A stretch of DNA of 64,000 bases from an uncultured virus (IMG/VR IMGVR_UViG_3300035181_001618) (taxonomy: Duplodnaviria > Heunggongvirae > Uroviricota > Caudoviricetes), in the IMG/VR virus record IMGVR_UViG_3300035181_001618, positions 62,001 to 126,000 of that record; one strand, 5' to 3'. Positions 28,530 through 55,220 of the stretch are shown piece after piece. The notes below the pieces were generated by a model. It ran no database searches. It had not been told where the DNA came from and worked only from the letters and a program-made list of their open reading frames with translations. The first letter of the stretch is position 1, and each line of letters begins with the position of its first letter. Made by a program: the position numbers and the translations under genes.

Positions 28530-31500
28530 TTAAAAGTCCAGGAGGTTGTTGATGAGCTGAGATTGGTAGGTAGGGACCTCCCAGTTCATCGGGGTGAAGA
28601 TGAGTTCGAGCTTATTGTCCACGAGCTTTTGCTCCATTAGCTTTCGGTCTACCTGAAAATTGCGGGTAAACCAAAGGGGCAAGTCCTCAGTTTCTGAGGT
28701 AAAGGAGATGCTCTTGAAGCCGAAAGCGTTATCTAGGAGCCACAGGGTTTTGATCTTATCCCCTGACTTAATAGGGACCCCGTCTAGCACCTTAAAATGC
28801 TCCAGCATGTAGTTGTGGTTGACAGCGTTGCGGGCGTTTGGCGCAATCTTGACCTTACTCAAGCCGTTGCGTTCGAGCCTGTCCCACAGCGTCCACGCTT
28901 CGTCGAGGTTGTTGACCGAGGTGACCATCGCGATATCAAGCGGGTTGATCTGGTCAGTGACCGTAGTAGTGCCAAGCGAGTTCCGGAAGTCGATGACCAC
29001 CTTGTCGATCTCGCTCTTGGACCGTTCATTGAGCAGCTTCATCACCACGTCCGTCAGCATGTGACGGATGACGGTCGGCGTTGACGAGAGGCGGATGTCC
29101 GATCCCATGGTCTTCAGCTCGTCCTCGTCGCCCGGGTTGATGCGCTTGCCTTCCTTGTCGACGACCAGCATCATGTACTTCTTCTTGGCCTGAATCAGGC
29201 CGGTCCGGCACACGAGCTCACGGTTGGCCTTGATCAAAGTCTCGAAGCCTGGCTGACAGTTGAAACCTGAGACCATGAACGGCGGGAAGGCGTCATTGAT
29301 GTCATCAGCGATAGCGTTCGCTGCCTCAACCAGCACGTCAACGTCATCGATGCCCTTGACGATGCTCTCGTATGTGAAGTAGACCGAGTCGGTGTCGCCA
29401 TAGATGGGGCCGGCACCAGGCGTGATGATGATCGAGTATGCGTTTTGCCCCCAGCGCAAGTTATGCTTGCCGTCGGTCCCTGTCTTCGAGTCCTTTTTCG
29501 AGTGCGGGTCAAAGGTCTTCAGCATCAGCGGAGCTTGACCTGTAGGCGCCAGGCTCTTCGACACCGTGTTGATCATCGTGTTGGTGATCTGTCGACCGCT
29601 GTAGGTGACCGAGGCGCCGATGCGTGGGTCGCCGAAGCGGCAGTACTCATTCAGCATAGCGCCGTAGGTGGAGTTGAGCAGCACCTTGCGCACGCCTTGA
29701 AGCATGTCGTAGTAGCCTGCTAGGCGCTTCGCCTCGATGACCTCAGGGTCCTTCTCCGTCTTGCCTTCGGCGAGCAGCTTGTCAGCTAGCTTGCCGTACT
29801 TCTTCTTCTCAGCCTGCATCTCCTTCCGACCGAAGAACCAGGAGGTCAGCACCTCAGGGACCAGGCCTTGGCCGTTACCCTGATCGAGGATCGTGCCGTA
29901 AGCCGAGACCGCGCACTTGTTCTCCTTGCAGTAGTCGACGACGACATTGGCAGGCAGCGCGAGCACTTGCGGGTCATGATCGAACTTAACATCGAGCATG
30001 AAGTCCTTGAATGGGCTTTCAGGGTCGAGAGCCACGGCGGACCACACGCGCCAGCCGTACTCGTTGGCGTCATAGACCGCGTCATCTTGCGGCGTTGTGA
30101 TGTTCTCGGTTCGATTGCCGTAGCGGACATTGGTATCTGTCGCCCCGTTGCCGTCAAGGTCCTTGTAGTACGTCCAGACGGCACGGGTGGTGGTTGCGTT
30201 GCGGTGCACGACCACGTCAACCCGGTACTTCTTCGAAACGATGTGAGTGCTAACGCCTCTGGGCAGCTTGACCTCAACCCAGCCATTGTCGAGGTCCGAC
30301 GGGCCGATGATCTGCCCTACGAGCTTCTCGAGGGACAGGTTGAGCGAGCGAATGGTGCTTGGGTACAAGGAGTTGATGTCACAAGCGCCGATCCACCGGT
30401 AGAAGCCGACGTTCGGCGTGACCACGATAGCGCCTTCAACCGGGTCGCCTTCAGGGCGCACGTTGCGGTCATTGACGATGCGCTGCAGCGTGTTGTGCGC
30501 ATAGTTCATGATGGCCGTGTCGATCAGCTGCACCGAGCCGAAGACCGAGTCAAAGTTGACTGAGGCCATGTGCACCATCTGGTTAGCCAGCTCAATGTAG
30601 CGGAACTTCGCATCGAGCCTAACCAGCAGAGTCACGTCATGGATGTTGTAGGTGACGAACTTAACGAAGTCATTGTTGTACAGCTCAGCAAGCGTGCCGT
30701 CGAACTCAACCTTGTCCTCCTTCAGCTCCTCAAGCGACACGTTGCTCAGGGAGTAGGACTGACGCTTGGTCAGGTCAAACTTTTGGAAGAGACGGAGGTA
30801 GTCGAGGTGGACCCGGCTAATCAGGTCGATGACAGGGTCCTTCTCCTTCGAGTGCTTAAACCTTGCCTTCTCAGTCCACCGAGGACTCGGGCCACCTTCT
30901 AACGCTAGCCTATCAAGCACGTGCTTGCCCATGACAAGCTCGATCCGCTTGGCGATGTACGGGAGGTCATAGAACTCGGAGTTCCAGCCCGACAGCACGT
31001 CACAAGGTTGGAGGAAGTCGAGCATCAGCTCGAGCAGCTCAACCTCATTGGTGACCAGGATGACCTCGCTCAGCTCAGCAGGCAGCTTGTCATCTGGGCC
31101 CCAGCTCTTCGGCGGCACGGCGACCGTGCACATCCGGCCGTTGACGCACAGGGTGAAAGCGTTGATCGGCGCGTAGGGATTGGCAGGGCCCGCATAGCCA
31201 ATGTCTGGGTTATAGTCAACTTCGATGTCAAGGAGGCCGATAGTCAGCTCAGGTGCAGGCTTCGTCGAGTAGATATCCATTAGGATCCGCTCGAGCGGAT
31301 TGACATCGGACTCAAACAGCGTCAAGCGTCGAAGCTGAGCATCGGCAATAGCTTCGTCGAAGTCGCTCGATGACGAGCAGTTCACCTTCTTGAGGTGCAC
31401 GCCCGAAGTCGAGATGAACGGCCCTGCGTCATCTCGTCTGTAAAAATAATAGGGAGGATCGTAGAGCTTACGAACACGCTGCCCGCTGGCTAGCTTTTCC

Positions 31501-34693: not shown

Positions 34694-35374
34694 ATGAACT
34701 ACAGCATCATCTATCAAAATTTGATCAAGCGAGGACAACAGCGTAAATCTTCAGACGTTGAAGGTGAGCGTCATCACATTGTACCAAGATGCATGGGTGG
34801 TAGTGATGCGAAAGTAAACTTGGTCAAGCTTCCTTACAGAGAGCATTTGTTCGCACATCGACTGTTGTGCCGCATTTATCCAATGCATCATGGATTAGCT
34901 CAAGCAGTAGCTCGCATTCAACGAAAGTATAAAGTGACTGGCAAGGAGCAATACAAATTATACGAAGCCGATCGCCGACGGGTGGCTGTGATGCTAAGCC
35001 TTGTTCACAAAGGTAAGACGTTATCAGACGAGCATAAGGCTCGTATCAGTCAATTTCATAAAGGTCGTAAGCAGCCTTCGCGTGCTGCGGAACATTCTCA
35101 AAAGCTTGGTGAAGCTCACAGAGGAATTCCATGTCCTCAACATGTCAAGGACGCAGTTGCTAGGGCAGCTACCGGTAGAATTAAGTCAGAAGAAGAGCGC
35201 GCTAAGATAAGCGCTGCTCAAAAAGGAAAAGTTGTGGCTCCAAATGCTCGCGCCCTCATGAGTGTTAGCTCAAAAGGGCGCGTATGGGTGCACAATGAAG
35301 AGAAAACTAAGCGCGTCAAACAAGATGAGCTAGAGCTGTATCTTGCTAATGGCTTCAGTTTAGGACGATGCTGA
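34694..35374 (+). mobile_element. free-standing HNH homing endonuclease with NUMOD3-like repeats
   Basis: ERHHIVPRCMGG..NLVKL..REHLFAHRLL; SDEHKARIS. Confidence 0.88.
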
Positions 35375-40836: not shown

Positions 40837-41466
40837 ATGACATATCGTTCGCCTTTCATCATCCAGCAAGGCTTCCTCACACCTGAAGAAGTAGCACGTA
40901 TCGCCGACCAAACACGAGTCGTCGAGCCAGACAAGGACTCAGAAGGGCGGCCTCTACCTATGGCTCGTGCCCATAAGGCGTCGGAGGACCTGATCTACAA
41001 CAAGTTCAAGCCGCTGATTCCGCTCATCGAAGAGCACTACGACATCAAGCACAAGGCCACCGAGACCATTCAGTTCCAGCAGTTTCCGACCTCAAATGCG
41101 AAGCTGGCAGAAGCCCCGCACTGTGACAACGCGGTTTACAAGCGGAAGAAGTGGGCACGAGTTTCAGGCCGTGACCTCTCCTGCATCATCTGGTTGAAAG
41201 ACTACCAGGACACCCCTCCCTTCAACCTCAAGCAGCACGTCTACGGCGGGAAGCTTGAGTTCCCCGTCTATAACTTTAGCTTCCAGCCTCAGGCTGGCAC
41301 GCTTGTCATCTTCCCCTCTTGCGAGCGGTTCATCCAAGCCACGACCTCAGTGCTCGTCGGCGAGCTGCAGCTCGCAAAGTTCTACGTGCACTCGCAAGGC
41401 CTTTGGCTTTACAACCCGGCTAACTTCCCAGGCGACTTCAGAAGTTGGTTCAACGACGTGGTCTGA
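40837..41466 (+). CDS. 2OG-Fe(II) oxygenase-like protein with divergent active site
   Basis: PHCDN, YGGKLEFP, P.AG..VIFPS; distal His position reads Gln. Confidence 0.7.
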   Translation: MTYRSPFIIQQGFLTPEEVARIADQTRVVEPDKDSEGRPLPMARAHKASEDLIYNKFKPLIPLIEEHYDIKHKATETIQFQQFPTSNAKLAEAPHCDNAVYKRKKWARVSGRDLSCIIWLKDYQDTPPFNLKQHVYGGKLEFPVYNFSFQPQAGTLVIFPSCERFIQATTSVLVGELQLAKFYVHSQGLWLYNPANFPGDFRSWFNDVV

Positions 41467-42073: not shown

Positions 42074-42537
42074 AGCTCGATCGCCTGACAAGAAGCGACT
42101 GCTCAAGATGCAGCAAGACTTCATCGACACGTTCCCTGACGACTGGGACTTCAAGCTCCAGAGCGACGGTGGCCTGAAGGTCACAAAGGCCAATGACGGT
42201 CCTTGCTACCAACTAGACAAGATCTTCTACAACCCTTACAACACGCGCATCTCCCAAGACGAGTGGGAGGAGGTCATTCGGAAACGTTTTGAAGAGGTCA
42301 TGGAACAGCATGACCTTCCAGCCATCGATGTGACCTTTGAAAATGTCCACCCTGCCATCACTATCTGCGAGGCCAATGTTCAGTATAAGTCATATGCTGA
42401 TGCATTTTATGTAGCAATTCTCGAAGAAGGTAGTTGGGACGCCTGGGGGTAATGAGCCTGGGGATTTCGGTGCTGATAACATCTTGGAATTCATCGAGCG
42501 ACAAATCAAAAACGGAAACATCAAACATGACAATTGA
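42070..42537 (+). pseudogene. tandem paralog of the previous gene with two frameshifts
   Basis: MKL at 42070 is out of frame with LLKMQQDFIDTFPD; a G5 run at 42445-42449 splits off a C-terminal NEPGDFGADNIL that matches the paralog's GNSFVADDI. Confidence 0.6.
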
Positions 42538-43111
42538 CCTCTTTGAACAAGCACTCAGCCGCGCCATGCTCTATGAGGTAGGCGGCTTCTGGAACCTCGA
42601 GACGCCGGGTGTGCGAGAAGGCCTGATCAAGACCCAAGCCCAACGTAAGGCCGTAGGCTATACGAATGACCCGGATGACCACGGCGGTGAGACCAAGTTC
42701 GGCGTTGCTAAGGCGGCCAACCCAGACCTCAACATCGCAGCGCTAGACTGGGAAGGCGCTAAGCGTGTCTACATGAAGCGCTACTGGCTGCCAGGCGACT
42801 GTCAAGACATGCCTAAGCTGGTAGCCCTAATGCACTTTGACGGGTGCGTCAACCACGGCGTTGGGCGGGCCGCAACCATGCTGCAAAAGGCTGTCGGCGC
42901 TACGCCAGACGGTGACATTGGGCCAGCCACCCTCAACAAGGTCAAGGCGCTCGACCAGCTGGTCGTCTGCAACAAGATCGCTGAAGCTCGTACCGCTTTC
43001 TATCGGTCAATTGTAGAGCACAACCCTGTGCAAGCGAAGTATTTGAACGGTTGGCTGCGCCGGATTAATGAAACTCTACAGTACGTCAAGATTCAAGCAT
43101 CAAAGGGATAA
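42527..43111 (+). CDS. GH108 endolysin with PG-binding domain
   Basis: EVGG...NDPDDHGGETKFGV, FD..VNHG, DG.IGP.T and YLNGWLRR motifs. Confidence 0.9.
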   Translation: MTIDLFEQALSRAMLYEVGGFWNLETPGVREGLIKTQAQRKAVGYTNDPDDHGGETKFGVAKAANPDLNIAALDWEGAKRVYMKRYWLPGDCQDMPKLVALMHFDGCVNHGVGRAATMLQKAVGATPDGDIGPATLNKVKALDQLVVCNKIAEARTAFYRSIVEHNPVQAKYLNGWLRRINETLQYVKIQASKG

Positions 43112-43703: not shown

Positions 43704-44069
43704 ATGTTTCAGCTGCTTGAATCGCTCTTAGAATTTCTCGACTCGAAGGGTGGTGTCCCTACCGAGCAAGACCTGACGAACGTCAGGGCTTACAAGGACC
43801 TGGTCAGCACGTGGCCAAAGCTCGAGAAGCAGCTGAAGCTTGCTTGGAACGGCGATGCACGTGAGATGAGCCGGGACGGCCACAAGACAGCCGAAGGCGA
43901 GAACGTCTACATCTTCCCAAAGTTGCTGAAGGTCTCCAGCCTTGAGAAGTATGACCCCGACTTTAAGCTGACGATGCCAGCGAAGCGGTGCATCGCTGAG
44001 CTGTTCACGCTCTTCTGCGATAAGTTCAAGATCGCCAACCGGCGCAACACGAACTGGATGGAGCGTTAA
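43704..44069 (+). CDS. hypothetical late protein
   Basis: TAAATA at 43690; MFQLLESLLE. Confidence 0.55.
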   Translation: MFQLLESLLEFLDSKGGVPTEQDLTNVRAYKDLVSTWPKLEKQLKLAWNGDAREMSRDGHKTAEGENVYIFPKLLKVSSLEKYDPDFKLTMPAKRCIAELFTLFCDKFKIANRRNTNWMER

Positions 44070-44377
44070 GGCTTCTTAGCCTTGTTGGCCTCTTCGGCTT
44101 CCTTCACCTGCTTGACATACAGCTCGGCGATTCGCCGCAACTGAGACTCAAGCAGCACCGCCCGCATCTCTGAGTCAAACATCCACCGCGCTACAGCCCG
44201 GTCATCCTTGCGTAGCTCATCGGCCGTAAGCGCAGGGACAGGGGCAGGAACGGTCAGCAGCTCTTGCGGAATTGGCGTGACTACGCGCTCGATGCGCACC
44301 ATCACAGGTTGCTCAGGCTTGGGCGTGCAGCAACCTGTCAACGCGAGCAGGAGGACTAATGTCAGGGCTCTCATCAC
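44066..44377 (-). CDS. o-spanin (lipoprotein)
   Basis: lipobox LTGC, Pro-rich, directly downstream of the i-spanin. Confidence 0.75.
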   Translation of the reverse strand: MMRALTLVLLLALTGCCTPKPEQPVMVRIERVVTPIPQELLTVPAPVPALTADELRKDDRAVARWMFDSEMRAVLLESQLRRIAELYVKQVKEAEEANKAKKP

Positions 44378-44781
44378 TTCGCTCCTTGGTCACGTGCTTG
44401 CTGGATCGCCGTCACCGCGTCGACGATGTTCGGTGGCACAGGCGAGGCCTGCTTGGTAGCGATGCGCTTGCGGGCGTCCGCAAGGCCAGCCTTAGCGACT
44501 GACAAGTCAGTCTTGACGCCTTCAAGGGCTTTGATGGCTAATGCTTGATCAGCCTGCAGCTTTGCCAGCTCAGCCAAGTTTGAGTCATTGACCGCCATCG
44601 CTGTCTGAAGACTTAGCTTCAACGTGGCATTGTCAGCCTGCACGCGCTGAACGATGGCTACCTCGTCATCGAGCTTGCTTTGAAGGCTGTGCACCTTGAA
44701 CCAGACGCCACCGCTAATTAAAGCCGCAATTAGTCCGAAGAGCACAAATCGGTTGCCGAGAAGGGAGAGGAGGAAAGGCAT
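44374..44781 (-). CDS. i-spanin
   Basis: N-terminal TM segment plus coiled coil. Confidence 0.75.
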   Translation of the reverse strand: MPFLLSLLGNRFVLFGLIAALISGGVWFKVHSLQSKLDDEVAIVQRVQADNATLKLSLQTAMAVNDSNLAELAKLQADQALAIKALEGVKTDLSVAKAGLADARKRIATKQASPVPPNIVDAVTAIQQARDQGAK

Positions 44782-44830
44782 ATATGTATGTGTTAAGAGC
44801 CGCCTGTCAGTGACAGGCGGTGATGCGAGC

Positions 44831-45190
44831 TTACTCGCCGTCCTTCTTCGTGGCAGCGCGGGACTCTTCACGAGCACCCTTGATCTCGTCAGAGATCTTA
44901 GCGTCCGAGTTGAAGCCAGCATCGATTGCGAAGCCTGTAACAAAGCCTGTGTACAGGGTTGCCCAGAAGCTCATGTCAGCGTTGACGATGTCGCCTGCAA
45001 GGGCTCCGATCATCGCGAAGAGGAAGACGATGACCGTGTAAAGGGTAGCTGCCAGGTTTTCCTTGCCGTACCAGTCAAACAAGCCGACGTCGGTCTCCTT
45101 GCGTAGGTACTTCTTCAGATAGTGGGCGAAGCCGCCAAACATGCCACAGGCAATGAAGGCGATTTGATTGGTGTAAGGTGTGATATCCAT
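44831..45190 (-). CDS. putative holin
   Basis: three hydrophobic segments, charged tail, upstream of the spanins, TAAATA promoter. Confidence 0.6.
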   Translation of the reverse strand: MDITPYTNQIAFIACGMFGGFAHYLKKYLRKETDVGLFDWYGKENLAATLYTVIVFLFAMIGALAGDIVNADMSFWATLYTGFVTGFAIDAGFNSDAKISDEIKGAREESRAATKKDGE

Positions 45191-45194: not shown

Positions 45195-45617
45195 CTATTT
45201 AGCTGAAAGCGGCTTCTTTGTACGATACCAGCCTAGGGTTCTGCCGCTGGCTTGAGCCGCCGCGATCATGGCGTCATTGGTGACATGCACGCCTGAGTAG
45301 AGCGCTGCCGCACCCTTGCGAATTGCTTGCTGCTCAACGAAGTGGATGAGCTGCTTGTAGATGCCTTGTTTGCGGTGCTCTTCAGCCACCGCAGAGAACA
45401 GCACCCACGCCGCACGCTTAGGAGGGTCATAGCTCCAGACCGACGCGCCGATCACCTGGTCACCCAACAGCGCATAGGCTACCAGAGAACCGTTCGTGAA
45501 CGGCAAGTCATAGTCTGCGTGGCCTGCCTTGACGAGAGCGAGGTACTCCTCGAGCACGAAGACGAAGGCCTTCGAATGCGCAAGCGAGTCCTCGCTGACA
45601 ACTTTAAGGAGCTGCAT
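45195..45617 (-). CDS. GNAT N-acyltransferase
   Basis: AVAEEHRKQGI and N..M motifs. Confidence 0.8.
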   Translation of the reverse strand: MQLLKVVSEDSLAHSKAFVFVLEEYLALVKAGHADYDLPFTNGSLVAYALLGDQVIGASVWSYDPPKRAAWVLFSAVAEEHRKQGIYKQLIHFVEQQAIRKGAAALYSGVHVTNDAMIAAAQASGRTLGWYRTKKPLSAK

Positions 45618-46587
45618 AGAGCCTTGCCTCGCCGCTCTTAAGGCCTTCGATGAAGGTCTCGAGCGTCACGATGATCTTCTGGTCTAGCGGCTTGAACTGA
45701 CGCGTCACGATGTTCATCAAGGCTTGCCCCTCTGACACCAGGTCATTAGCGTTCTCAAAGCCTGTATATTTCATCGCTTGCACCAGCTCAGGGAACTGCT
45801 CGACATACATGCATGGCTTGATGAAGTAGCTAAAGCAGGTCCATGATTGGGCGATGCCAGGCTTGATCGAGTCAAATGACGAGTAGACAGCTTGATGAGC
45901 CAACCGCAAACCCTTGACAGCCGGGTGGTCAAGGTAAGAGAGGATCAATTCAGGCGAGTACATGAAGAACTTCGTGCAGCCCTCGATCCCGTACTTGATC
46001 AGGTGCTGTTGAATCGGCGTAGGGCCGAAGGAGGTAACAATCGGGTCACCTTCTAAGCTCGAACCCTTTGACAGGACCATGTCGCCGCCAGCCATGATGA
46101 AGGCGTGGGTGTCCTTGAATAGCTCGATCAAGTAAAGCTGGGCTAGCACTCGAGCATTGGTCAAGCAGTGCTCAGCGGCAAGCTGTTGGCCTCGCCCGTC
46201 ATAGAACTTTTGCAGGTCTAGGTCAATCAGCAATGGCTTGAGGTCAAACTTTCGACAGAACTCAAATGCTTGCTTGATGTCATGCTCGTTACGGATCCCA
46301 CCCTTCGGACCCCGTATGTGCATGATGACCGGCTCAAACAGAATCTTGCGGTCCAGAAGCGAGAGGCAAACCGCTTGCGAGTCCCCGCCGCCGCTCAAGC
46401 CCACACGAATAGGCTTGGTGAATTGGTTAGCAAGGTCCTCTACGGTGTTACCGCACTCTTCGCGAAACGACCTGACCTCACGAGTGACACCCGCTACCTC
46501 AACGGCGAACTTACCGTCGACGATTGGGTCATTGTGCCACTGGCCATTCCACCCCCACTTGTAGTGGTTATCCTTGCTGTATTGCAT
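45604..46587 (-). CDS. asparagine-synthetase-like PP-loop (ANH) enzyme
   Basis: SFREEC, GLSGGGDS and KYTGFE motifs. Confidence 0.65.
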   Translation of the reverse strand: MQYSKDNHYKWGWNGQWHNDPIVDGKFAVEVAGVTREVRSFREECGNTVEDLANQFTKPIRVGLSGGGDSQAVCLSLLDRKILFEPVIMHIRGPKGGIRNEHDIKQAFEFCRKFDLKPLLIDLDLQKFYDGRGQQLAAEHCLTNARVLAQLYLIELFKDTHAFIMAGGDMVLSKGSSLEGDPIVTSFGPTPIQQHLIKYGIEGCTKFFMYSPELILSYLDHPAVKGLRLAHQAVYSSFDSIKPGIAQSWTCFSYFIKPCMYVEQFPELVQAMKYTGFENANDLVSEGQALMNIVTRQFKPLDQKIIVTLETFIEGLKSGEARLYAAP

Positions 46588-47098
46588 GCTTCTTCCAGTA
46601 GCTGTGACGCTTGCTGCCTGGCGTCCACGGCAGCTTAACGTTAAAGTTGTATGCAACCCACGAAACAAAGGTGTTGCAGTTGTTGGCAAAGAGGTGAAAC
46701 CCCGTAGTTACCTTTGGGTAGTCATTGACTACGTCGAGCACGTCTAACAGCGCCGCGTCGCGTACGGTAGCCAGCAGCCTAGGCTTGTGGCCAAACCAGC
46801 GTTGGCCGGCATGCCTGTCAGAGGCGAGCACTACCTGCTCAAGAGGTGCGACTGGCCGCCGAATGTATGACCTAAATGAGACCTCTTGGTAGTCTAGCGT
46901 CTCAGCGCTGCTTACTTCAAAGACTGTATGCACGCCGTTTCGCACATAAGCCACATATGAATGCTGTCCACCCAGTCTTCCCTTCAAGCCAAACGTGCGC
47001 GCACGCATGAAGTGCAAGCCGTCAGGCAGCTCCAGCTCGATGTTCACAGCTTGGTCTTGCCAGCGGCCGAAGAGCGTGTCATGGAGAAGGGCTATCAT
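46568..47098 (-). CDS. permuted papain-like (NlpC/P60-type) peptidase/acyltransferase
   Basis: HSYV followed by NNCNTFVSW (His before Cys). Confidence 0.6.
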   Translation of the reverse strand: MIALLHDTLFGRWQDQAVNIELELPDGLHFMRARTFGLKGRLGGQHSYVAYVRNGVHTVFEVSSAETLDYQEVSFRSYIRRPVAPLEQVVLASDRHAGQRWFGHKPRLLATVRDAALLDVLDVVNDYPKVTTGFHLFANNCNTFVSWVAYNFNVKLPWTPGSKRHSYWKKHAIQQG

Positions 47099-47933
47099 GA
47101 GGAGACATCTTGTAGTAGTTGACGTGCTGCCTATCATAAGCCGCCTGCCAGCTTCCACGGTCGGTGTCCCAGTCACCCGTCGGTACAGGGTCATGGATGA
47201 AGTGCCCGTGACGGTCCTCACCCTGCACCCACAATGTCGACTCGGGTGCGAAGTTAGCAATCGGCTTAACATGGCCCGCGGCGAAGATCATACCGCACGC
47301 CAGGCGCGGCTCTGAGCTTGTGTTCGACGACGAGCCATGAACTATGTAAGGCGAATGCATCGTAATGTGGCCTGCTGGCACCTCCGCTGACATGAGGCGC
47401 CGCGGGCGCTTGCCAGTCTCAGGCTCAACAGCCGTCTGACCGCGCATCAGGAGGTTCGACTCGCTCCGCACGTCATGGTGCTCAAGCTGCTTCTTATCCT
47501 TGTGCGAGCGTAGCCGGTACCTGATCGCGCCGCTCTCGCAGGTCACGTCGTTGAACGCCAGCCAGACCGTGACCGCATCCTTCGGCGCGAAGTTCCAGTA
47601 GGTTGCGTCTTGGTGGTAGGACACGATCTTGCCGTCATTGGGCTCCTTGACCCAGAACAGGGTGTCCCAGCAGTGGAAGTCATCGCCCAGCACCGCCCCG
47701 ACATAGTGCCTAATCGCCGCTGACTTGACAATCTCAGCCATCCACGGGAAGAGCACCTGGCTCTTGCAGCGGTAGTCGGAGGCCATCAAATTGCGGTCAG
47801 AGATCTCAGCAAGCAGGTGCTGACGGTAGACCGCAACCTGCTCATCCGTGAAGACGCGCAGCGGCCAAACAGCTCCGATCTCGTCAAACTCTCGCTTAAC
47901 AGCTTCTGGGTTCAGGAGGTAGAGGTCGGTCAT
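47079..47933 (-). CDS. PhyH-family 2OG-Fe(II) dioxygenase
   Basis: K.P, HQDATYW, TVWLA and HGS..N....R motifs. Confidence 0.88.
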   Translation of the reverse strand: MTDLYLLNPEAVKREFDEIGAVWPLRVFTDEQVAVYRQHLLAEISDRNLMASDYRCKSQVLFPWMAEIVKSAAIRHYVGAVLGDDFHCWDTLFWVKEPNDGKIVSYHQDATYWNFAPKDAVTVWLAFNDVTCESGAIRYRLRSHKDKKQLEHHDVRSESNLLMRGQTAVEPETGKRPRRLMSAEVPAGHITMHSPYIVHGSSSNTSSEPRLACGMIFAAGHVKPIANFAPESTLWVQGEDRHGHFIHDPVPTGDWDTDRGSWQAAYDRQHVNYYKMSPHDSPSP

Positions 47934-48715
47934 TGTCGAATTGCTCGGATCCACAGCATTGATGGGTCAAACTCATACCACCGCTTCGTGCCGAAGTCAG
48001 GATTGCTGGCGTCGCCGTGATGGTTGTTGTGCAAGGCTTGCCCCCAAGTGATGAGGCTTAACAGCGGGCGGTTGACCGAGAAGTCCTTGGTCTGATAGTT
48101 ACGGTACGTGCCGATGCCGCCCGTGTGACCGAGCACATTGACAGCGGCCTCTTGGTGGATAGCCCAGACCTGAGCGAGCGTCAAAGCCAATAACGGGACC
48201 GGCGAAGCGATGAGCCAAAGCAGGGCGAAGAAGGCCCACGTGCCCCAGAGAACTGAGTGGTAGTAGGTCACCTGCCACTGCCATGTAGGCTCACGGAGGA
48301 AGTCAATGCCTGAACGCAACGAGACCTTGTTGACGATGTCCTTGTCAAAGGCATAGCCTTGGTACGCGGTCCACAGGCTATGAGCGTGCGGCGAGTGGAG
48401 GTCCTTCTCGGTGTCGGAGTAGCGGTGATGGACGCCCCGATGGAGCGCAACCCAGAACAGCGCATGGCCATGACAAGCAAGCAAGCCGAAGAACAGCATC
48501 GCCTGCTCCCACGCCTTGCTGGTCTTGAACGACCGATGTGAGAAGAAGCGGTGCAAGCCGACAGCTACACCCAAGCCGCTAATCAAGCAGTAGAAGCCGA
48601 ACGTCATAAGCAAAGTTGACGCTGGCAAGCCATAGCGCCACAGCAAGGCTACCGCAATCACGTGAGGCGGCAGCCAAACTTTCCAAAAGTGCGAGCTCGT
48701 AAGCATATCCCTCAT
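47930..48715 (-). CDS. membrane delta-9-like desaturase
   Basis: His boxes HRFFSH, HRGVHH and HNNHH. Confidence 0.9.
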   Translation of the reverse strand: MRDMLTSSHFWKVWLPPHVIAVALLWRYGLPASTLLMTFGFYCLISGLGVAVGLHRFFSHRSFKTSKAWEQAMLFFGLLACHGHALFWVALHRGVHHRYSDTEKDLHSPHAHSLWTAYQGYAFDKDIVNKVSLRSGIDFLREPTWQWQVTYYHSVLWGTWAFFALLWLIASPVPLLALTLAQVWAIHQEAAVNVLGHTGGIGTYRNYQTKDFSVNRPLLSLITWGQALHNNHHGDASNPDFGTKRWYEFDPSMLWIRAIRQ

Positions 48716-49632
48716 TCTGCTACCTCTATGTTCTCTAGCTCCGCCCAGACCTCCTTGATCGGGCGAGAGAAGTCATCCATCCAGATTGTACCGTACCGCT
48801 CTTGACATAGCATTTTCCAACGCTGATTGATCGGCACGACTACGTCAAGCATGTTTTCAAAGCCAGTATACTTTTGCCGAGCTTCGAGCGTCGGGAACGC
48901 CCCTTGATAGTACTTGACCTTGAGCATCTCTGAGCTCCAGATCTGCGGCCGCCACATGTTAGCCACCAGGAGCTGCATGGTCGGCGTCCTGATGAAGGCA
49001 TTGGTCAGGTTTGTGTCGATCCACCCGTTCGGCTTCGAGTTAATGCCGTAATAGGTCAGGAACTTGGTCACTGAATAGTGGCGCTCGCTGTAGTACAGGT
49101 TCCACACGCGCTCGGGACCGCTGTCATCAGCGACCAGGCCTGGCTCGTCATAGCAATGGATGAACACGCGGTCAGGCGAGTTCAGGTCCAGCATCATCTT
49201 CAGCTGCCCGGTGTAAGCGAGCTCGGTGGTTTGACAGTTGGCCGCAATCTCGAACTGCTCGTCGCTGCCGTACCAGCTCTTGAGGTCGAAGAAGTGCTCA
49301 TACGGCGTGACGTCCCGACGAGCGCACCAACGCCTAGCCCAGTAGAGGTCATGATTGTTTGCGCCGTTATTCATGATCGTCGGCGTAAACTTGACTCCAG
49401 CGGTCCACAGGCTCTCACAGATCCACTCGCTGTCAAGGCCGCCGCTGAAGAGGACCATCAGCTCCTTGTCAGGATATGTAGCAGCGAGGTCCTTCGCTGC
49501 GGCCAAGGACTCTTGTCTCAACGACATCGGCGGGCGAGTCGGGCGCTCGAACCAGACCTGGTAGCACTGCTCATTGTTGGTGCGCGGAATGTCGGCTACG
49601 CCGTCATACCCTTTGTAGATGCGTGATGTCAT
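48712..49632 (-). CDS. asparagine-synthetase-like PP-loop (ANH) enzyme
   Basis: SLRQES, LFSGGLDSE and RQKYTGFE motifs. Confidence 0.65.
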   Translation of the reverse strand: MTSRIYKGYDGVADIPRTNNEQCYQVWFERPTRPPMSLRQESLAAAKDLAATYPDKELMVLFSGGLDSEWICESLWTAGVKFTPTIMNNGANNHDLYWARRWCARRDVTPYEHFFDLKSWYGSDEQFEIAANCQTTELAYTGQLKMMLDLNSPDRVFIHCYDEPGLVADDSGPERVWNLYYSERHYSVTKFLTYYGINSKPNGWIDTNLTNAFIRTPTMQLLVANMWRPQIWSSEMLKVKYYQGAFPTLEARQKYTGFENMLDVVVPINQRWKMLCQERYGTIWMDDFSRPIKEVWAELENIEVAE

Positions 49633-50401
49633 GGCTGATATGCTTTATGAGATGGTAGCCTGGGTCACAAGCTTGAGGCGTGTCAACAGCAAAGTTAGCG
49701 GAGCCTGGAAAGGCGTGGTGGGTGTTGTGGAGGGTTTGCCCCCAAGTCAGCCACGCAAGCCACCGAATGTTCCGGCTATTGTCCTTGGTCAGGTGGTCAG
49801 CCTTGCCGAATCGCCTGTCATGACAGAAGCTGTTGATGATCGCCTCTTGATGGATACTTATCATCCCCGCGATAGCGGCTCCCGCTGCAATAGCACGAGT
49901 CGGTTCGAAACAGGCTAGGATGGCGAGCAAAGCCCACCAGCTCCACAGCAAGGTCGTGTACCGGCGATGTGCAAGTTTGCACCACTTGTCTTTGATTAGG
50001 TCGCTCGCAAGCGACATGGACACGTCAGTAGGCTTGATCGAGAAGATCCAGCCCATGTATGCGTGCCAGAACCCTTTTGTCGGCGTGTGGATGTCAGGTA
50101 GCTTGTCTGAGTTTGGGTGATGCAACCGATGTAAAGCGACCCAGAAGATGACAGAGCCTTGGCCCGCCAGCGAGCCGCCGATAAGCATGACATAGCGCCA
50201 GAACGCGTTCGTGGTAAACGCTCGATGCGTGAAGTATCGGTGAAACCCGACGCTCACGCCTAAGCCTGAGAACCACAGATTGAGGGCCAAGAAGGAAGCG
50301 AGAAGTCCCCAAGACATGCTATGAACGGCATAAAATAGACCGGCAAGGCCTACAGCGTGCGCGGGTAGGTGTATCCTAGTGACGTGCGGATTAGGCGACA
50401 T
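49604..50401 (-). CDS. membrane delta-9-like desaturase
   Basis: His boxes HRYFTH, HRLHH and HNTHH. Confidence 0.9.
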   Translation of the reverse strand: MSPNPHVTRIHLPAHAVGLAGLFYAVHSMSWGLLASFLALNLWFSGLGVSVGFHRYFTHRAFTTNAFWRYVMLIGGSLAGQGSVIFWVALHRLHHPNSDKLPDIHTPTKGFWHAYMGWIFSIKPTDVSMSLASDLIKDKWCKLAHRRYTTLLWSWWALLAILACFEPTRAIAAGAAIAGMISIHQEAIINSFCHDRRFGKADHLTKDNSRNIRWLAWLTWGQTLHNTHHAFPGSANFAVDTPQACDPGYHLIKHISHDITHLQRV

Positions 50402-50909
50402 AGGAACGGCGGATTAGCAGCGGGATGGCAAGCACAGTCTCATGCATGACATGCTCCCAGAGGATCGGGTCAGCTACCTTCTTGTACGGCTCGACCGCGC
50501 ATACGTCCTCGATGGTGTACTTGCGCAAGTCCTCCGTGCCGTCTCGCCAGAAGGACCGGTAGGCTCGTGCCCACTTCGCAGGGAAAGCGTAGTAGAACTT
50601 CGTGACGTTTAAAGATTCATAAAATTTCAAGCACTCCGACAAGCACTCTCTTAGCTCTTTGGGGTCACCGTCAGAGACCATCAAGTCGAGCACCCAGAAG
50701 TCAACGTGCGCGTAGGCGCAGATGAAGGCTGTCAACCGGTCACCGTCAAACTTGCCTACAGCGTAGTGCGGTGCATGCTGGTAACGGGCGTGCACGCTGA
50801 GCAGTGGAGCTGTCGTGATTGCGGTCACCGCAGCGCCGGCGTGAGTTGTCTTAGTGGCGCGCAGCTTACGCATGGCTCGCCAGTCAGAAGGTAGCAGCTG
50901 TCTAAGCAC
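50391..50909 (-). CDS. GNAT-fold-like protein
   Basis: GTG start, LRQL..SD N-terminus and VGKFDGDRLTAF strand. Confidence 0.45.
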   Translation of the reverse strand: MLRQLLPSDWRAMRKLRATKTTHAGAAVTAITTAPLLSVHARYQHAPHYAVGKFDGDRLTAFICAYAHVDFWVLDLMVSDGDPKELRECLSECLKFYESLNVTKFYYAFPAKWARAYRSFWRDGTEDLRKYTIEDVCAVEPYKKVADPILWEHVMHETVLAIPLLIRRSYVA

Positions 50910-51336
50910 GTGTGTAGACCGCTCCGTTGAACCGAGGGGCGACACGAGAGAAGACCGTGCGGTAGACAGGGTGGTCAATCATCATGCCAGGGGTAACAGA
51001 CAGCACGTGAGTCCAACCCGCCGGCGGCTCAACGCCTTCCTTCAAGAAGATTTGCGTGGGCAGAGCGAGCTTGTCAGCGACCAGGTCAAGGTGCGCGATG
51101 CTGCCGAACCAGTGATGAATGTAGGCTCCGCCCTTCTCATGCATGATCGTATAGAGCGCCGCGGCTACAGTCATGTCAGTCCCTGTGTCGGTAACCTCAT
51201 AGATGCCGGTCGTGTCGGTCGGGGTCAGGAAGTACTGTGTCAGCTGAGTGTGCGTCGCGAGCAGTGGATCATGCTGCATCAGGTACCGTTGGATTCGGCG
51301 ATGGTCAAGACGAGTGAGGGTTTTGGCTTCGTACAT
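50902..51336 (-). CDS. hypothetical protein, possibly GNAT-like
   Basis: 144-aa ORF coupled on both sides. Confidence 0.5.
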   Translation of the reverse strand: MYEAKTLTRLDHRRIQRYLMQHDPLLATHTQLTQYFLTPTDTTGIYEVTDTGTDMTVAAALYTIMHEKGGAYIHHWFGSIAHLDLVADKLALPTQIFLKEGVEPPAGWTHVLSVTPGMMIDHPVYRTVFSRVAPRFNGAVYTRA

Positions 51337-51339
51337 AGC

Positions 51340-52047
51340 TTAGAATGGGTGAATGACGGTCTTCATCTTGAGCATATTTAGCTCAACAAAGCTCCCCACG
51401 TATCGACTGTGGTTGAGGGCTACCAGCTGGAGCAAAGCTGTAATGAGCCAGGCTACCTGCAAGTTGTGAAACGCCAGCGGCAGGCTGTAGTTAGCCGTGT
51501 CAAGGTAGCTCTCGTTGAGACGAACGAATGTGCGTACGTTTAGTTTCGTCCAGGGAAAGCACATTGGGCCAAGCCAGAGCCTCATACGATTGCAGATGAC
51601 CGGCAGATACGTCTTGCCCGGCATGTCAGGGAGGTCAAGGTAAGAGTCAGCGAAGACCAACGTAAGCTTGGCGTCATCAGCCGGATACATCCCGTTCTCT
51701 TCGAGGCCGTCAGCTACCAGCTGACCGACGCTGTTCTTAGTCAGGTCGATGAAATTGTACGTGACGTGCTTGAGCTGTTCTTGCACGTCGGCCCAGGCGG
51801 CCCCGTGGAGCTCCCAGCCTGCCATGCTCGGATGTGGGTCAAAGGCAAGAAAGCCTCGAGCGTTGTACGCTTCGAGCAGCTCCATCTCGTCATCGTCGAG
51901 GTCAGTAACGTCAATGCCGACTACCAAGCGGTCGAGGAACTTTTGCCTGTCAAGCGGCTCAACATGCTTGACGTTTTCGCTTACGAGCAAAGCCTCGCCG
52001 ACACCTGTGCTTTTCAAGAGCCACTGAGGCTTCAATTTGATGATCAT
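51340..52047 (-). CDS. TOMM/cyanobactin cyclodehydratase N-terminal region (RRE plus E1-like), stand-alone
   Basis: KP.W...LLVSE, Y..RGFL, GW..HG, L...LEENG, LTLVFADSYL and YLPV....LWLGP occur in the same order as in TruD/PatD as I recall them. Confidence 0.7.
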   Translation of the reverse strand: MIIKLKPQWLLKSTGVGEALLVSENVKHVEPLDRQKFLDRLVVGIDVTDLDDDEMELLEAYNARGFLAFDPHPSMAGWELHGAAWADVQEQLKHVTYNFIDLTKNSVGQLVADGLEENGMYPADDAKLTLVFADSYLDLPDMPGKTYLPVICNRMRLWLGPMCFPWTKLNVRTFVRLNESYLDTANYSLPLAFHNLQVAWLITALLQLVALNHSRYVGSFVELNMLKMKTVIHPF

Positions 52048-52060
52048 ATGCTATGTGATG

Positions 52061-52087
52061 AAAGAGGGGCCGAATTCGGCCCATCTT
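52061..52087 (-). terminator. hairpin / putative terminator after the fibre gene
   Basis: GGGCCGAATTCGGCCC followed by CTCTTT on the minus strand. Confidence 0.5.
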
Positions 52088-52089: not shown

Positions 52090-53661
52090 TTACTCAAACG
52101 AGCCAGAACCGTTGACGTAACCGTCGATACCCTGGTTGTACATGGTAGAGGTGATAGTAGCCGTGGTCCATGCGTGATGATCATTGCCGTTAGTAACGGC
52201 AAAGTCGTGAGCGTTACCGCACATGTAGAAGTACATGGTGATAGTTCCTGCTGAATTCATCGTTGCCGTGATGATGTTAGCGCGACCTGAGTAGCTGATC
52301 GGATACAGGTGACCCGTTACGGATGCATCTGCATGTACCGGAATCGAGTTGTTGCCCGTGCCTGGATCGTAGTCATATGCAATGCCACCGTCAGTACCGA
52401 AATGCACGGTTCCGTTAGGAGCGAGCGTGACGGTGTCACCTGTGTAGAGGTTTTGGATATTGACAGTGTTAACACCCGATGCCAAGCTGATCCTAGCAGC
52501 TTCGCCGTAGAACGTGCTTTGGTAGTAGGCATTGATGTGGACCACGCCGCCCGGAACGCCAGACACGCTAACGCTCGCTGACCGTGGTTGCAGGAGCGAG
52601 AGCGCGTTAAGCGTCAGCGTGCCAGTTCCTGTTGTCGCGTACGTGAAGTCTACAACGCCAACGCCGCTCGAGTTCATCGAGACCGTAGTAGCTGTAATGC
52701 CTGACGGACCGCTCAAGCCAGAGCCAGGAGCCAGGTTGACGTTGACAGGCAAGCTCGTAGCGTTCGGCGTGCCCGTGAAGGTCAGGTGGAAGACCACGTT
52801 TGTGCCAAGCGTGGTCGAAGTCGGCGTAGCAGACATAGCCGTGAAGCCTGTCAACGTAGGTGCCGGGCTTGGAACTGGAGTTCCTGGCGACGGAGTCGGC
52901 GTTGGCGTGCCCTTGCCTGGTGGGCTTGGAGACGGGGTAGGCGTCGGTGTCGGCGTTGGGCTAGGCGCCGGAGCGTTGACTGTGATGTTGGCCGATTGGG
53001 TTGCGCCCACGGTCATGTTGGTGCCGCTATTGACAACGGCCTGCACGGTCTTGACGCCCGCTGCTGAGCTGCCAATTGTGTACGTGATGTGGCCGACACC
53101 GCTCGAGATGATCAGTGATTGCGAGACCGAACCACCAAACGTTCCGGTTAAGCCGCCCGTTGTGTTGTTGAGCGTGATGCCGGTCGTGACTGACTGGTCA
53201 ACCGCAGACGTGAAGGTCAGGGTCAGGGTCGAGCTAGAGCCGGTGGTAACGCTCGACGGCGCGAACGAAGCACCAGAGAAGATGATGGCCGGCGACGGGC
53301 CTGGAGTCGGGGTAGGCGTAGGCGATGGGCCCGGAGTCGGGGTAGGCGATGGCGACGGCGACGGACCGGCTGTCGGGTGAGGCCACACTACAACCCAGTT
53401 GCCGCTGATTGTGTAGAGCAGCATCTGATTGTCAGTGCTGTTGTACCAAAGCTGACCGGTGGTCGGGTGCGGCGGAGCGCTTGAGCTGGCAAAGTGCTCA
53501 AGCAGCCTGATCAGGTTCTCCTGCACGCGCTCACCCCAGTTCGGCGCTGCTTTGCCTGTCAAGGCTAAGGACGTGGATGAGGTATCAATGCTGCCTGCTG
53601 GCAGCGTAAACGGAGTCTTTAACGAGTCATTAGACCAGTTAAGCGTGTAGTTGAATGTCAT
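52090..53661 (-). CDS. tail-fibre/baseplate appendage protein with (SP/TP)n linkers
   Basis: WGE..QENL..LLEHFA..P..P..GQLWY N-terminal motif; two Pro-rich linkers; Ig-like segments. Confidence 0.7.
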   Translation of the reverse strand: MTFNYTLNWSNDSLKTPFTLPAGSIDTSSTSLALTGKAAPNWGERVQENLIRLLEHFASSSAPPHPTTGQLWYNSTDNQMLLYTISGNWVVVWPHPTAGPSPSPSPTPTPGPSPTPTPTPGPSPAIIFSGASFAPSSVTTGSSSTLTLTFTSAVDQSVTTGITLNNTTGGLTGTFGGSVSQSLIISSGVGHITYTIGSSAAGVKTVQAVVNSGTNMTVGATQSANITVNAPAPSPTPTPTPTPSPSPPGKGTPTPTPSPGTPVPSPAPTLTGFTAMSATPTSTTLGTNVVFHLTFTGTPNATSLPVNVNLAPGSGLSGPSGITATTVSMNSSGVGVVDFTYATTGTGTLTLNALSLLQPRSASVSVSGVPGGVVHINAYYQSTFYGEAARISLASGVNTVNIQNLYTGDTVTLAPNGTVHFGTDGGIAYDYDPGTGNNSIPVHADASVTGHLYPISYSGRANIITATMNSAGTITMYFYMCGNAHDFAVTNGNDHHAWTTATITSTMYNQGIDGYVNGSGSFE

Positions 53662-53723: not shown

Positions 53724-54362
53724 TTATTTAACGCTGAACCAACCGACTACGGAGTAGCGCTTACCCTTAGTCAAGGGCGTGACCTCATGCAGGAAGCGGA
53801 TGTCGGATGGGAAGAGGACCATGCCTCCCGTAGCAGGGTGCAGCTTGACAATCGAGCCATCGCTGTGATGCACCGAATGCAGCACTAGGTCGCCGCCTTC
53901 ATAGTCCTCATTGAGGTACATGATGCAGGTCAGCTGCCGATGCGGCGAGGTGTACCTGAAGACGCCTTTTGCGTCGTAGTATGCGTTGTCTGTATGAGCG
54001 AGAAAGTGCCCTTTGTCAACGTCAGCGTATGACAAGAACTGAAGAGGCTCTGAGAGGAACGCCGGCTTACCAAGCAGCGCGGTCGTGTGATGGGTGACAG
54101 CCGCTGTCATGCGCTGAGCGACCTGGGCATAAAGCTCAGGCTCAAGCTGCATGGCTTTTGAGGACCGATGGTAGGTGTCAACCACCTGCTTGTGAAGCGT
54201 CACTTCACTGTCATACACGCCCGAAGCTTGAGGGTTGCTCAAGCTTGCAATCACGCGCTGGCAAAACTCGCCGTCGAGGGTGACGGCGGTAATCACAGGT
54301 GGGTGGAACTGTGGCACGAAGTTCGCGCCGTACGGCTCTAACGAGCGGTAGTCGACGTACAT
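53724..54362 (-). CDS. prolyl-4-hydroxylase-like 2OG-Fe(II) oxygenase
   Basis: HTD, YLNEDYEGG, FPS and HEVTP..KGKRY motifs. Confidence 0.88.
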   Translation of the reverse strand: MYVDYRSLEPYGANFVPQFHPPVITAVTLDGEFCQRVIASLSNPQASGVYDSEVTLHKQVVDTYHRSSKAMQLEPELYAQVAQRMTAAVTHHTTALLGKPAFLSEPLQFLSYADVDKGHFLAHTDNAYYDAKGVFRYTSPHRQLTCIMYLNEDYEGGDLVLHSVHHSDGSIVKLHPATGGMVLFPSDIRFLHEVTPLTKGKRYSVVGWFSVK

Positions 54363-54583
54363 TAGCGACGCGTTGCTGTGGTCAGTGACCTGATCTCGCC
54401 GTTGAGAGCTTTTGGTTCGATCAGCGCGTTGCCTAAGTCATACTCTTCAAGAATCATAGCAGGCACAACCTCAAAGACAAATGTGCCCCGATTGCCATTG
54501 CGCACGATGTTCTGCAGCTTGTAGCCCTTAACCTTCAGGTAAGCGGCGAGAATGATGTCTACTGTAGAGAAATTATTTTGCAT
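54362..54583 (-). CDS. small DUF5659-like protein
   Basis: F.T.D..LAAYL...G...FVF pattern. Confidence 0.55.
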   Translation of the reverse strand: MQNNFSTVDIILAAYLKVKGYKLQNIVRNGNRGTFVFEVVPAMILEEYDLGNALIEPKALNGEIRSLTTATRR

Positions 54584-55220
54584 GATGCTTTTCCCACCTC
54601 AGCTTTGCGCTTTCGCGCATTCTTTGTCGCGTCTCTTCTGACGCGCTAGAACCGGCATTCCATGCAGGAACGCCTGTTCTCTTTCCTTTGTTAGCCGGCT
54701 CTTTGCCTAATCGAGCTTTACTGATATTTGCTTTATGCTCTTCAGTAAATGTACGCGATGATCCAACTCTGTTGCCCATCATGAGTTGCCTCAAGATCGG
54801 ATCTTGCCAAACAGCTTTAAGCTTCTCTGACCTTTTAGCTTTATTGGCTGGGTCGAGATTTGCAGATTGGAGCCCTGCTAGAATTTTATTCCGATACTGA
54901 TCATCTTGCCAACGTATCAGCATCTGATCACGCGTAATGTTTGCATGCTGTCTACGCAGCCAACCATAAGCTTTATTTGAAGCAAATGATCGCGTGATGC
55001 TCATCATATGAGCAGCGTGAATCAACTTTGTAGATGGATGAATCTTAGCCAGCAAGATATGAGCTAAAAAATGCTCTTCTGGCGTTAACGCAGCAATGTT
55101 GGAAGCATCATCGAGCCCGCCCATACATGACGGAACAATATGATGACGTTCTACATACCCTTCAATTGACCGAGATTTTGCTCGATCGATGAGGCTCTGA
55201 TATATGCGTTTGTAATCCAC
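54573..55220 (-). mobile_element. free-standing HNH homing endonuclease
   Basis: ERHHIVP.CMGG..N...LTPEEHFLAH.LL; TEEHKANIS; SEETRQRM. Confidence 0.88.

Follow-up and report, generated by a model that had tools for sequence, protein, structure and literature searches.

A mobile phage gene cassette combining a predicted peptide-recognition scaffold, PP-loop ATPases and membrane desaturases: a possible peptide-directed acyl/amide tailoring pathway

What does a large phage do with ten tightly packed genes that couple a predicted peptide-recognition protein to putative amide-forming ATPases and fatty-acid desaturases? The question is raised by the interval 45195-52047 of a 64,000-nucleotide stretch of DNA (hereafter the window), which represents bases 62001-126000 of a 133,943-bp IMG/VR virus record (IMGVR_UViG_3300035181_001618; CheckV completeness 37%). 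The interval is filled by ten co-directional minus-strand open reading frames (ORFs), g1 to g10, here referred to as the cassette. The answer that is favoured below, tentatively and without great confidence, is that the cassette encodes a peptide-directed acyl/amide tailoring pathway carried on a mobile phage unit, and that it probably attaches a modified fatty group to a peptide or protein. Its most novel element, as predicted from structural models, is the pairing of an RRE/E1-like scaffold (RRE, the peptide-recognition domain of enzymes that act on ribosomally synthesized and post-translationally modified peptides, RiPPs) with a PP-loop ATPase.

The peptide theme derives from g1 (51340-52047, 235 amino acids). 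An exhaustive HMMER search of 1.84 billion cluster representatives identified 31 relatives of this protein, while a word-indexed protein search returned g1 itself, one 85% relative and nothing further, and a Pfam scan gave no match. A profile built from 27 sequences matched MusD (2e-6) and TruD (4e-4) of the PDB in their N-terminal parts, and an AlphaFold2 model based on the same 27-sequence alignment reached a predicted local distance difference test score (pLDDT) of 93.2. In Foldseek this model retrieved LynD and TruD at the top (E 1e-14, TMq 0.67-0.70), followed by MccB, McbB, PaaA and MusD (E 4e-10 to 1e-6 and TMq 0.47-0.53 for MccB and PaaA), with MoeB and ThiF ranked below these. Neighbours of a poorer ESM Atlas model of g1 were weak (TM-score 0.25-0.40) and mostly RRE-bearing families, and the single BFVD match at E<=0.001 was a ThiF-like protein of crAss001. 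The profile and model data thus confirm g1 as a two-domain protein, an RRE followed by an E1-like domain, as had been proposed from its sequence in the original prediction. After the first Rossmann strand g1 reads IDLTKNSVG, with one conserved Gly at this place in the family alignment, as judged by inspection and without structural superposition. The same inspection did not detect the Gly-rich nucleotide-binding loop of the adenylating E1-like enzymes (MccB, PaaA, ThiF, MoeB). As this ATP loop is not seen, g1 is probably a non-catalytic docking scaffold, comparable to the E1-like parts of LynD and McbB. The top structural matches of g1 (LynD, TruD, MccB, McbB, PaaA and MusD) are all RiPP enzymes, which is the reason for placing a peptide at the centre of the proposed pathway.

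The ATP-dependent step would be provided by g5 (48712-49632, 306 amino acids) and g9 (45604-46587, about 327 amino acids; longest ORF to 46689). The two proteins carry the P-loops SGGLDS and SGGGDS, respectively, and have a C-terminal KYTGFE in common. Their paralogy is distant (22-28% identity to each other's orthologues). Among 17 relatives of g5 obtained by word-indexed search, S63, G64, G65, D67 and S68 are invariant, and there is no invariant Cys. By sequence, the g5 profile matched nothing in the PDB and g5 nothing in Pfam; g9 gave sub-threshold matches to NAD_synthase (16.7 bits; Pfam cut-off 21) and to NCBIfam nadE (19.4 bits, below cut-off). The structural neighbours of g5 in the Atlas are viral clusters tagged 'Asn synthase domain' and QueC (TM-score 0.77-0.81) and cellular Asn_synthase clusters (TM-score 0.59-0.64), which for g5 support the adenine-nucleotide alpha-hydrolase fold of PP-loop ATP pyrophosphatases. 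The motifs of both proteins and the predicted-structure neighbours of g5 therefore support the earlier PP-loop call for g5 and g9, which are regarded as paralogous, Asn-synthetase-like ATPases. By analogy with such enzymes, g5 may adenylate a carboxylate and then form an amide. A sulfur-inserting Fe-S role for g5 is unlikely since no Cys is conserved, and an analogy to the TtuA/TtuB/TtuC type of E1 plus PP-loop thiolation was discarded on the lack of a conserved Cys in g5 and of an ATP loop in g1.

The two themes meet in a predicted g1-g5 complex. When g1 and g5 were co-folded with their own separate alignments, three runs gave ipSAE values of 0.76, 0.76 and 0.75, compared to 0.01 for the best of three controls. 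The partner pLDDT was at least 90, and contacts agreed between runs to at least 97%. The pass mark used is reached by 116 of 157 solved complexes and by 2 of 215 mismatched pairs, counts that apply only approximately to self-made alignments. The predicted interface comprises g5 residues 216-230, 240-244 and 293-296 and, in the E1-like domain of g1, residues 87-95, 127-128, 146, 162-166 and 209-218; it includes the family-invariant positions P217, L222 and N225 of g5 as well as Q91 and the G160-P161 region of g1. In a metagenome contig with related genes (L083, see below) the g1 gene and the PP-loop gene overlap. Hence, the PP-loop ATPase g5 is the predicted binding partner of g1. We know of no solved E1-like/PP-loop complex, and a pass derived from a memorised structure thus seems unlikely.

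The acyl theme rests on a second group of genes, for which the family calls derive largely from Pfam (cut-offs 29.7 bits for FA_desaturase, PF00487, 20.7 for Acetyltransf_1 and 25 for DUF3750), with little contribution from NCBIfam and PHROGs. Both g4 (49604-50401; FA_desaturase, 44.3 bits) and g6 (47930-48715; 38.2 bits) are confirmed by sequence as SCD-type membrane di-iron fatty-acid desaturases: g6 can be aligned to SCD1 (4ymk; E 1e-6) such that the His boxes of the two coincide, and the same boxes are present in g4 as HRYFTHR, HRLHH and HNTHH. The g7 protein (47079-47954) is a PhyH-family Fe(II)/2-oxoglutarate (2OG) oxygenase (PhyH, 75.1 bits), the best PDB match of which is 6zyk (2e-15; no relevant literature retrieved), with further matches to MysH, SnoK and human PhyH. 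The desaturase and PhyH calls of the original prediction, all above the Pfam cut-offs, thus hold. Its acetyltransferase calls fared unequally. That of g10 (45195-45617) as a GNAT acyl/acetyltransferase is confirmed (Acetyltransf_1, 41 bits; phrog_1249, acetyltransferase). The g3 protein (50391-50909, 172 amino acids) may possibly be GNAT-like, as suggested by four weak PDB matches (E 0.02-0.23), every one to an N-acetyltransferase, and by an hhalign E of 0.01 between the g3 and g10 families, and g3 lacks a Pfam match. For g2 (50902-51336, 144 amino acids) the suggestion was not borne out. This protein, which has orthologues in two relatives (G001 and L083), gave no match in Pfam, NCBIfam or the PDB and an hhalign E of 0.028 against the GNAT family, and its C-terminal motif VTPGxMxDHPxYxxVFSRVxPRFxGxVY is highly conserved.

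The remaining cassette protein, g8 (46568-47098, 176 amino acids; longest ORF to 47272), was earlier called a permuted papain-like enzyme. H46, H57 and C141 (in NCNTF) are invariant in four of four sequences, an H..H..C arrangement that may resemble the H-box/NC motif of LRAT and PLAAT. At the family level, g8 matches DUF3750 at 24.4 bits, just below the cut-off, and gives no match to the PDB by sequence. DUF3750 itself has been classed as papain-like (PMC10318531). A permuted papain-like assignment of g8 (of the LRAT or NlpC/P60 kind) is accordingly supported by motif only. An eleventh gene, a P4H-type Fe(II)/2OG oxygenase (53724-54362, minus strand; 2OG-FeII_Oxy_3, 69 bits; phrog_61), probably belongs to the cassette as well, since its homologues abut g1 in three relatives (locus L004 of G001, L083 and L084); in the window phage a fibre gene lies between the oxygenase and g1.

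The gene arrangement is that of a single unit. With starts as backed by homologues, adjacent cassette genes overlap by 4-29 nt or are spaced by 3 nt. For instance, g3 has a GTG start at 50909 (longest ORF to 50978) that overlaps g2 by 8 nt and is reached by the homology to G001 and L083, and the probable ATG of g7 at 47933 forms an ATGA overlap with g6. The dense minus-strand packing noted originally is therefore real, although the text of the prediction counted nine genes where its own list correctly held ten. The sole real gap, 42 nt, separates the stop of the fibre gene (52090) from the g1 ATG (52047) and contains a perfect 6-bp GC hairpin, GGGCCGAATTCGGCCC, at 52067-52082 (minus strand). 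The tail following the hairpin is T-poor, which makes a terminator function uncertain, and as a scan for terminator-like structures was, taken as a whole, not above chance (15 found versus 10.2 ± 4.1 expected) the hairpin is notable by its position alone.

The unity of the set is also seen in the distribution of the cassette among other phages. Apart from another record of the same phage (L003/L096, 99-100% identity), the oxygenase and g1 to g10 occur in the same order in G001, a phage record of 176,943 bp rated 72% complete, which includes locus L004. The identities are 29% for the oxygenase, 42, 40, 52, 57 and 53% for g1 to g5, and 62, 51, 39, 38 (E 2e-72) and 40% for g6 to g10. The genes are here spread over about 22 kb by about 17 interleaved genes. 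Those of lipid type include several Asp/Arg-hydroxylase (LpxO/OlsC-like) genes, FabG-like genes of the short-chain dehydrogenase/reductase family, a B12-radical-SAM gene and a TauD/ScoE-like gene. A further GNAT is interleaved as well, as are genes for a class-III aminotransferase and an NfsA-like nitroreductase. Outside the cassette, the window record (134 kb) and G001 (177 kb) have 7 ORF pairs in common in a comparison of all ORFs of at least 30 amino acids at E<=1e-4. The metagenome contigs L083 and L084 hold a core in a different order (oxygenase, g1, PP-loop, g2, g3, desaturase). Beyond these two contigs, scans of metagenomes and GTDB gave only distant PP-loop relatives, and a search for related loci with a narrow g1 alignment gave no contigs beyond two already known. 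Collinearity in an otherwise nearly unrelated phage therefore indicates, at the level of sequence, that the cassette is one horizontally mobile functional unit and one pathway. Co-occurrence of the gene set in relatives, on which the original prediction had staked its case, is consequently seen both in the ten collinear genes of G001 and in the core of L083 and L084.

Taken together, the following pathway can be envisaged. The scaffold g1 would hold a leader-like stretch of a peptide or protein and present it to g5, which would adenylate a carboxylate and form an amide in the manner of asparagine synthetase, NAD synthetase or QueC, while g9 would make a second amide. An acyl group would be moved from acyl-acyl carrier protein (acyl-ACP), acyl-CoA or host phospholipid by g10, probably g3, and the putatively LRAT-like g8. 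The g4 and g6 desaturases and the PhyH and P4H-type oxygenases could then desaturate or hydroxylate the acyl chain or the peptide at the inner membrane. The expected product would be a peptide or protein with an unsaturated or hydroxylated acyl-amide group. The acyl part of this scheme draws on the two desaturases, the GNAT, the H..H..C motif of g8, the lipid-type extra genes of G001 and the frequent pairing of PP-loop and desaturase genes in other phages described below. An acyl/amide pathway with a peptide or protein as its target, which was the broad proposal made at first, hence fits both the predicted g1-g5 complex and the lipid-type enzymes accompanying the cassette in G001.

Several observations weigh against this scheme. 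The g1-g5 contact is a model score and not a measurement, the g8 fold call depends on a sub-threshold Pfam match and a likeness in motif, g3 is GNAT-like at best weakly, and g2 lacks any family match. Moreover, neither the cassette nor its immediate surroundings were found to contain a conserved small ORF or other conserved candidate substrate, be it in the window, in G001 or in L083. This agrees with the precursor-less cassette described originally, and the substrate is thus not a conserved gene within or adjoining the cassette. One precursor candidate was a 41-amino-acid basic ORF at 51959-52084 (minus strand), which begins within the hairpin and runs across the g1 start in a different frame; it was rejected because conservation in G001 is lacking, and it is likely to be spurious. 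Nothing in the window corresponds to a 101-amino-acid ORF of L004 (9578-9883). Finally, PP-loop/desaturase modules of the wider family occur without any g1, an ACP-like ORF is detectable in some of the loci scanned, which points to carrier-bound small-molecule chemistry, and both the window phage and G001 encode an ACP-like protein outside the cassette.

The last three points bring forward the alternative that survives best: that the product is a small molecule, carrier-bound or free, such as an amide-linked unsaturated or hydroxylated lipid (an aminolipid or N-acyl amine) assembled on ACP or from CoA esters, with g1 as an adaptor no longer binding a ribosomal peptide. A query with the g5 family showed that 181 viral stretches encode relatives, the best 80 loci of which were kept. 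By ORF clustering, 79 of these 80 contain a PP-loop ORF and 50 contain a desaturase. After dereplication at 90% PP-loop identity into 56 groups, a desaturase is present in the locus for 34 at a median gap of 0.9 kb, a raw count that stands without a background rate for viral contigs. The islands also carry multiple PP-loop and desaturase paralogues as well as Rieske, radical-SAM, Asp/Arg-hydroxylase, GNAT, TctC and ATP-grasp genes. Proteins resembling g3 are found among them (21 ORFs); g1 and g2 are not. Up to five PP-loop or six desaturase paralogues are found per 20-kb locus (L024, L050, L021 and L018, for example), and two arrangements recur in the wider loci, a triad of PP-loop gene, a gene for a protein of about 180 amino acids and desaturase, and a pair of TctC and a gene for a 390-amino-acid protein.

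The widespread PP-loop/desaturase pairs without g1 speak for a small-molecule pathway, as do the FabG-like, LpxO/OlsC-like, ScoE-like and class-III aminotransferase genes of G001 and the failure to find a precursor gene. Of the 93 loci scanned, 8 have a detectable ACP-like ORF, and G001 encodes a full ACP homologue at 29922-30254 (PP-binding, 56.5 bits). In the window record, the only PP-binding match is an ORF at 4925-5242 (plus strand; 31.7 bits), which covers profile positions 29-67 of 67 only, that is the C-terminal half, and has a DSLD motif, a short N-terminus and a C-terminal extension of about 40 amino acids. This ORF lies 40 kb from the cassette, no PP-binding ORF was found inside the window cassette, and an ACP gene forms part of the cassette in none of the three lineages seen. 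As, in addition, ribosomal peptides are the substrates of all the nearest structural relatives of g1, a small-molecule product is regarded as possible though doubtful, and a peptide- or protein-directed pathway is retained as the working interpretation.

If a protein is modified, is it a virion protein? In the original prediction the adjacent Ser/Thr/Pro-rich fibre was the best candidate substrate, to be acylated or hydroxylated. The gene in question (52090-53661, minus strand) encodes a 523-amino-acid fibre-like virion protein, fib523 (phrog_15511, 3e-12; phrog_14394 'virion structural protein', 9e-6; N-terminus), with [ST]P-rich linkers at residues 98-124, 230-248 and 251-268. Its position between g1 and an oxygenase of P4H type that probably belongs to the cassette is suggestive, and Pro-rich repeat proteins of virion type are encoded within 4 kb upstream of g1 in two of two phages with visible upstream context, in the form of [ST]P linkers in the window phage and (VGTP)n tails in G001. 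Three G001 genes (83265-84158, 93855-94247 and 95905-96414) encode proteins with long C-terminal (VGTP[P])n repeat tails, two of them a short distance upstream of the cassette and close to a tail-collar fibre gene. However, Pro-rich repeats are also present in further proteins of both genomes, no fib523 homologue was found beside the G001 cassette, and the GC hairpin separates fibre and g1. The N-terminal homologues of fib523 are fibres of L060, a 389,331-bp IMG/VR contig that in the region 6508-17406 has such fibres together with a lysis cassette. These fibres lack Pro-rich linkers, and a different module, consisting of PP-loop, TctC and two 'c2' genes, lies between the two fibre genes at this junction. 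The fibre/lysis junction may therefore be merely a hot spot for accessory genes. The preference for the fibre is thus not supported, and modification of this or another virion protein is considered improbable.

In both phages the cassette has fibre genes on one side and lysis genes on the other, a position suggestive of late expression. On the lysis side the window phage has probable holin-like, i-spanin-like and o-spanin-like genes directly downstream of g10 (44066-45190, minus strand), recognised by three hydrophobic helices, a transmembrane helix with a coiled coil and an LTGC lipobox, respectively, and an endolysin gene at 42434-43111 (plus strand; phrog_315); in G001 a Peptidase_M15_4 gene occupies this side.

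Two explanations dispense with a dedicated pathway of the kind proposed. The cassette might consist of unrelated auxiliary genes adjacent by chance, for instance desaturases adjusting host membrane fluidity as in cyanophages. Stand-alone viral lipid desaturases have indeed been described, and those of cyanophages represent the nearest published viral case (PMC5776448). Eleven genes collinear in two otherwise nearly unrelated phages, overlapping reading frames and a predicted g1-g5 complex make this very improbable. Least probable of all is a canonical RiPP system (lasso or azol(in)e/thiazole-oxazole-modified microcin, TOMM) with its precursor and missing enzymes in the unsequenced genome part, which the g1 fold, the Asn-synthetase-like fold neighbours of g5 and a record covering only 37% of the genome might allow, but which is at odds with the absence of YcaO from the 134-kb record, the NfsA-like nature of the G001 nitroreductase, the size of g5 and g9 (about 300 amino acids, no PF00733 match), a g8 that is no transglutaminase-type protease, and desaturases, which are part of neither class.

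What would a peptide- or protein-directed pathway imply? A more far-reaching proposal, which is put forward as a speculation and is itself rather doubtful, is that a PP-loop (Asn-synthetase-like) ATPase has replaced YcaO as the ATP-dependent partner of an RRE/E1-like docking protein, giving rise to a new class of leader-guided maturase, and that phages use it, with GNAT/LRAT-type acyl transfer and membrane desaturases, to produce a ribosomal lipopeptide or to lipidate virion or host proteins during infection. If the g1-g5 pair is real, the enzymes that can be recruited by RRE/E1-like scaffolds would extend beyond YcaO, and the pair would open a way to study the phage PP-loop/desaturase islands, a large family. 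The pathway, if true, may represent a new phage route to chemical change in a peptide, a virion protein or the host envelope. To our knowledge, phage-encoded leader-guided peptide modification combined with lipid-tailoring enzymes is without precedent, and the literature searched yielded no description of a phage PP-loop plus desaturase combination or of an RRE/E1-like protein combined with a PP-loop ATPase or Asn synthetase.

The genomic setting is that of a phage throughout. The window has an even G+C content (0.50-0.59) and encodes a family-B DNA polymerase, the top tblastn match of which is the Ralstonia jumbo phage RsoM2USA (42%), together with a primase, a DnaB-like helicase, PhoH, a prohead protease, a collagen-like tail fibre, a very large virion protein and an endolysin. 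This gene content identifies the record as a fragment of a large uncultured tailed phage. The cassette stretch is intact and without joints in four DNA sequencing runs from sediment and microbial mat, which are possibly the source samples and so no independent support. A nucleotide search of the GenBank phage collection and a tblastn search with g5 gave zero matches, and PADLOC gave none for the ten cassette proteins and hence no sign of a known defence system. Elsewhere in the window, a 515-amino-acid fusion of a RimK-like ATP-grasp and a putative ATP-dependent zinc protease domain is encoded at 10009-11556 (minus strand), and a tRNA nucleotidyltransferase (3661-4716, plus strand) lies near a Thg1-like tRNA-His guanylyltransferase (5724-6551, plus strand), the two apparently forming a phage set for the repair or maturation of tRNA. 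Three homing-endonuclease-like genes, one HNH-type and two NUMOD3-bearing, are found at 54573-55220 (minus strand), 11534-12364 (plus strand) and 34694-35374 (plus strand), the first of these between the structural genes and the P4H-type oxygenase. A 73-amino-acid ORF at 54362-54583 (minus strand) has a 72-amino-acid counterpart in L060 directly upstream of a fibre gene, and outside the cassette another gene, at 40837-41466 (plus strand), also resembles 2OG-Fe(II) oxygenases, though with a weaker match (2OG-FeII_Oxy_3, E 1.3e-3).

How, finally, does the cassette compare to known systems? Among the azol(in)e RiPP enzymes, LynD, TruD, MusD and McbB have the same order of an N-terminal RRE and an E1-like domain as g1, and likewise lack the nucleotide-binding Gly-rich loop. 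They differ in having a YcaO partner, in place of which the cassette has a predicted PP-loop ATPase partner, and g1 is in addition free-standing, phage-encoded and only 235 amino acids long. No match to YcaO (PF02624) was found in the 133,943-bp record (a 37% fragment) or among the ten ORFs, Pfam detected no SagB/McbC-type flavin mononucleotide (FMN) dehydrogenase in the window cassette, and the G001 nitroreductase is not SagB-like, its best match being an NfsA-type NADPH nitroreductase (8e-44). The microcin C7 enzyme MccB and the pantocin A enzyme PaaA resemble g1 in fold and, as PaaA acts beside a 2OG oxygenase, also in the oxygenase gene adjoining g1 in relatives. They are adenylating enzymes, whereas g1 is without an ATP-binding motif, and no precursor gene of the heptapeptide or 30-amino-acid type is conserved upstream of g1.

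The likeness to lasso-peptide synthetases, drawn in the original prediction, holds in outline only, in that an RRE, an ATP-dependent PP-loop amide former and a Cys/His enzyme occur together. The g1 RRE is not of the PqqD type and is joined to an E1-like domain, g5 and g9 are synthetase-only proteins without a PF00733 match at E<=0.1, g8 is putatively permuted papain/LRAT-like (DUF3750 match only) rather than a transglutaminase-like B2 protease, the desaturases and GNATs are foreign to lasso systems, and no precursor was found. As membership of that class the analogy fails on the cyclase, the protease and the precursor. With no YcaO, SagB-type dehydrogenase, PF00733 cyclase or precursor, the cassette is, on sequence evidence, neither a lasso nor a TOMM/cyanobactin azoline system.

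Enzymes are also shared with other phage genes. The wider phage modules of PP-loop, GNAT-like and desaturase genes share with the cassette the paralogous PP-loop enzymes, g3-like proteins, SCD-type desaturases and tight arrays, while g1 and g2 are confined to this rare sub-family and an ACP, sometimes present there, is not part of the cassette. JamABC-like thiotemplated desaturation cassettes differ in having an ACP and an acyl-ACP ligase beside the desaturase, an arrangement not seen here. Cyanophages similarly encode membrane fatty-acid desaturases, but these reportedly occur as single auxiliary genes, whereas here two desaturase paralogues form part of an operon of ten genes that also encodes amide ligases and a protein for peptide recognition. 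By analogy, the cassette may work partly like a RiPP maturation machinery, with leader-type recognition coupled to an ATP-dependent enzyme.

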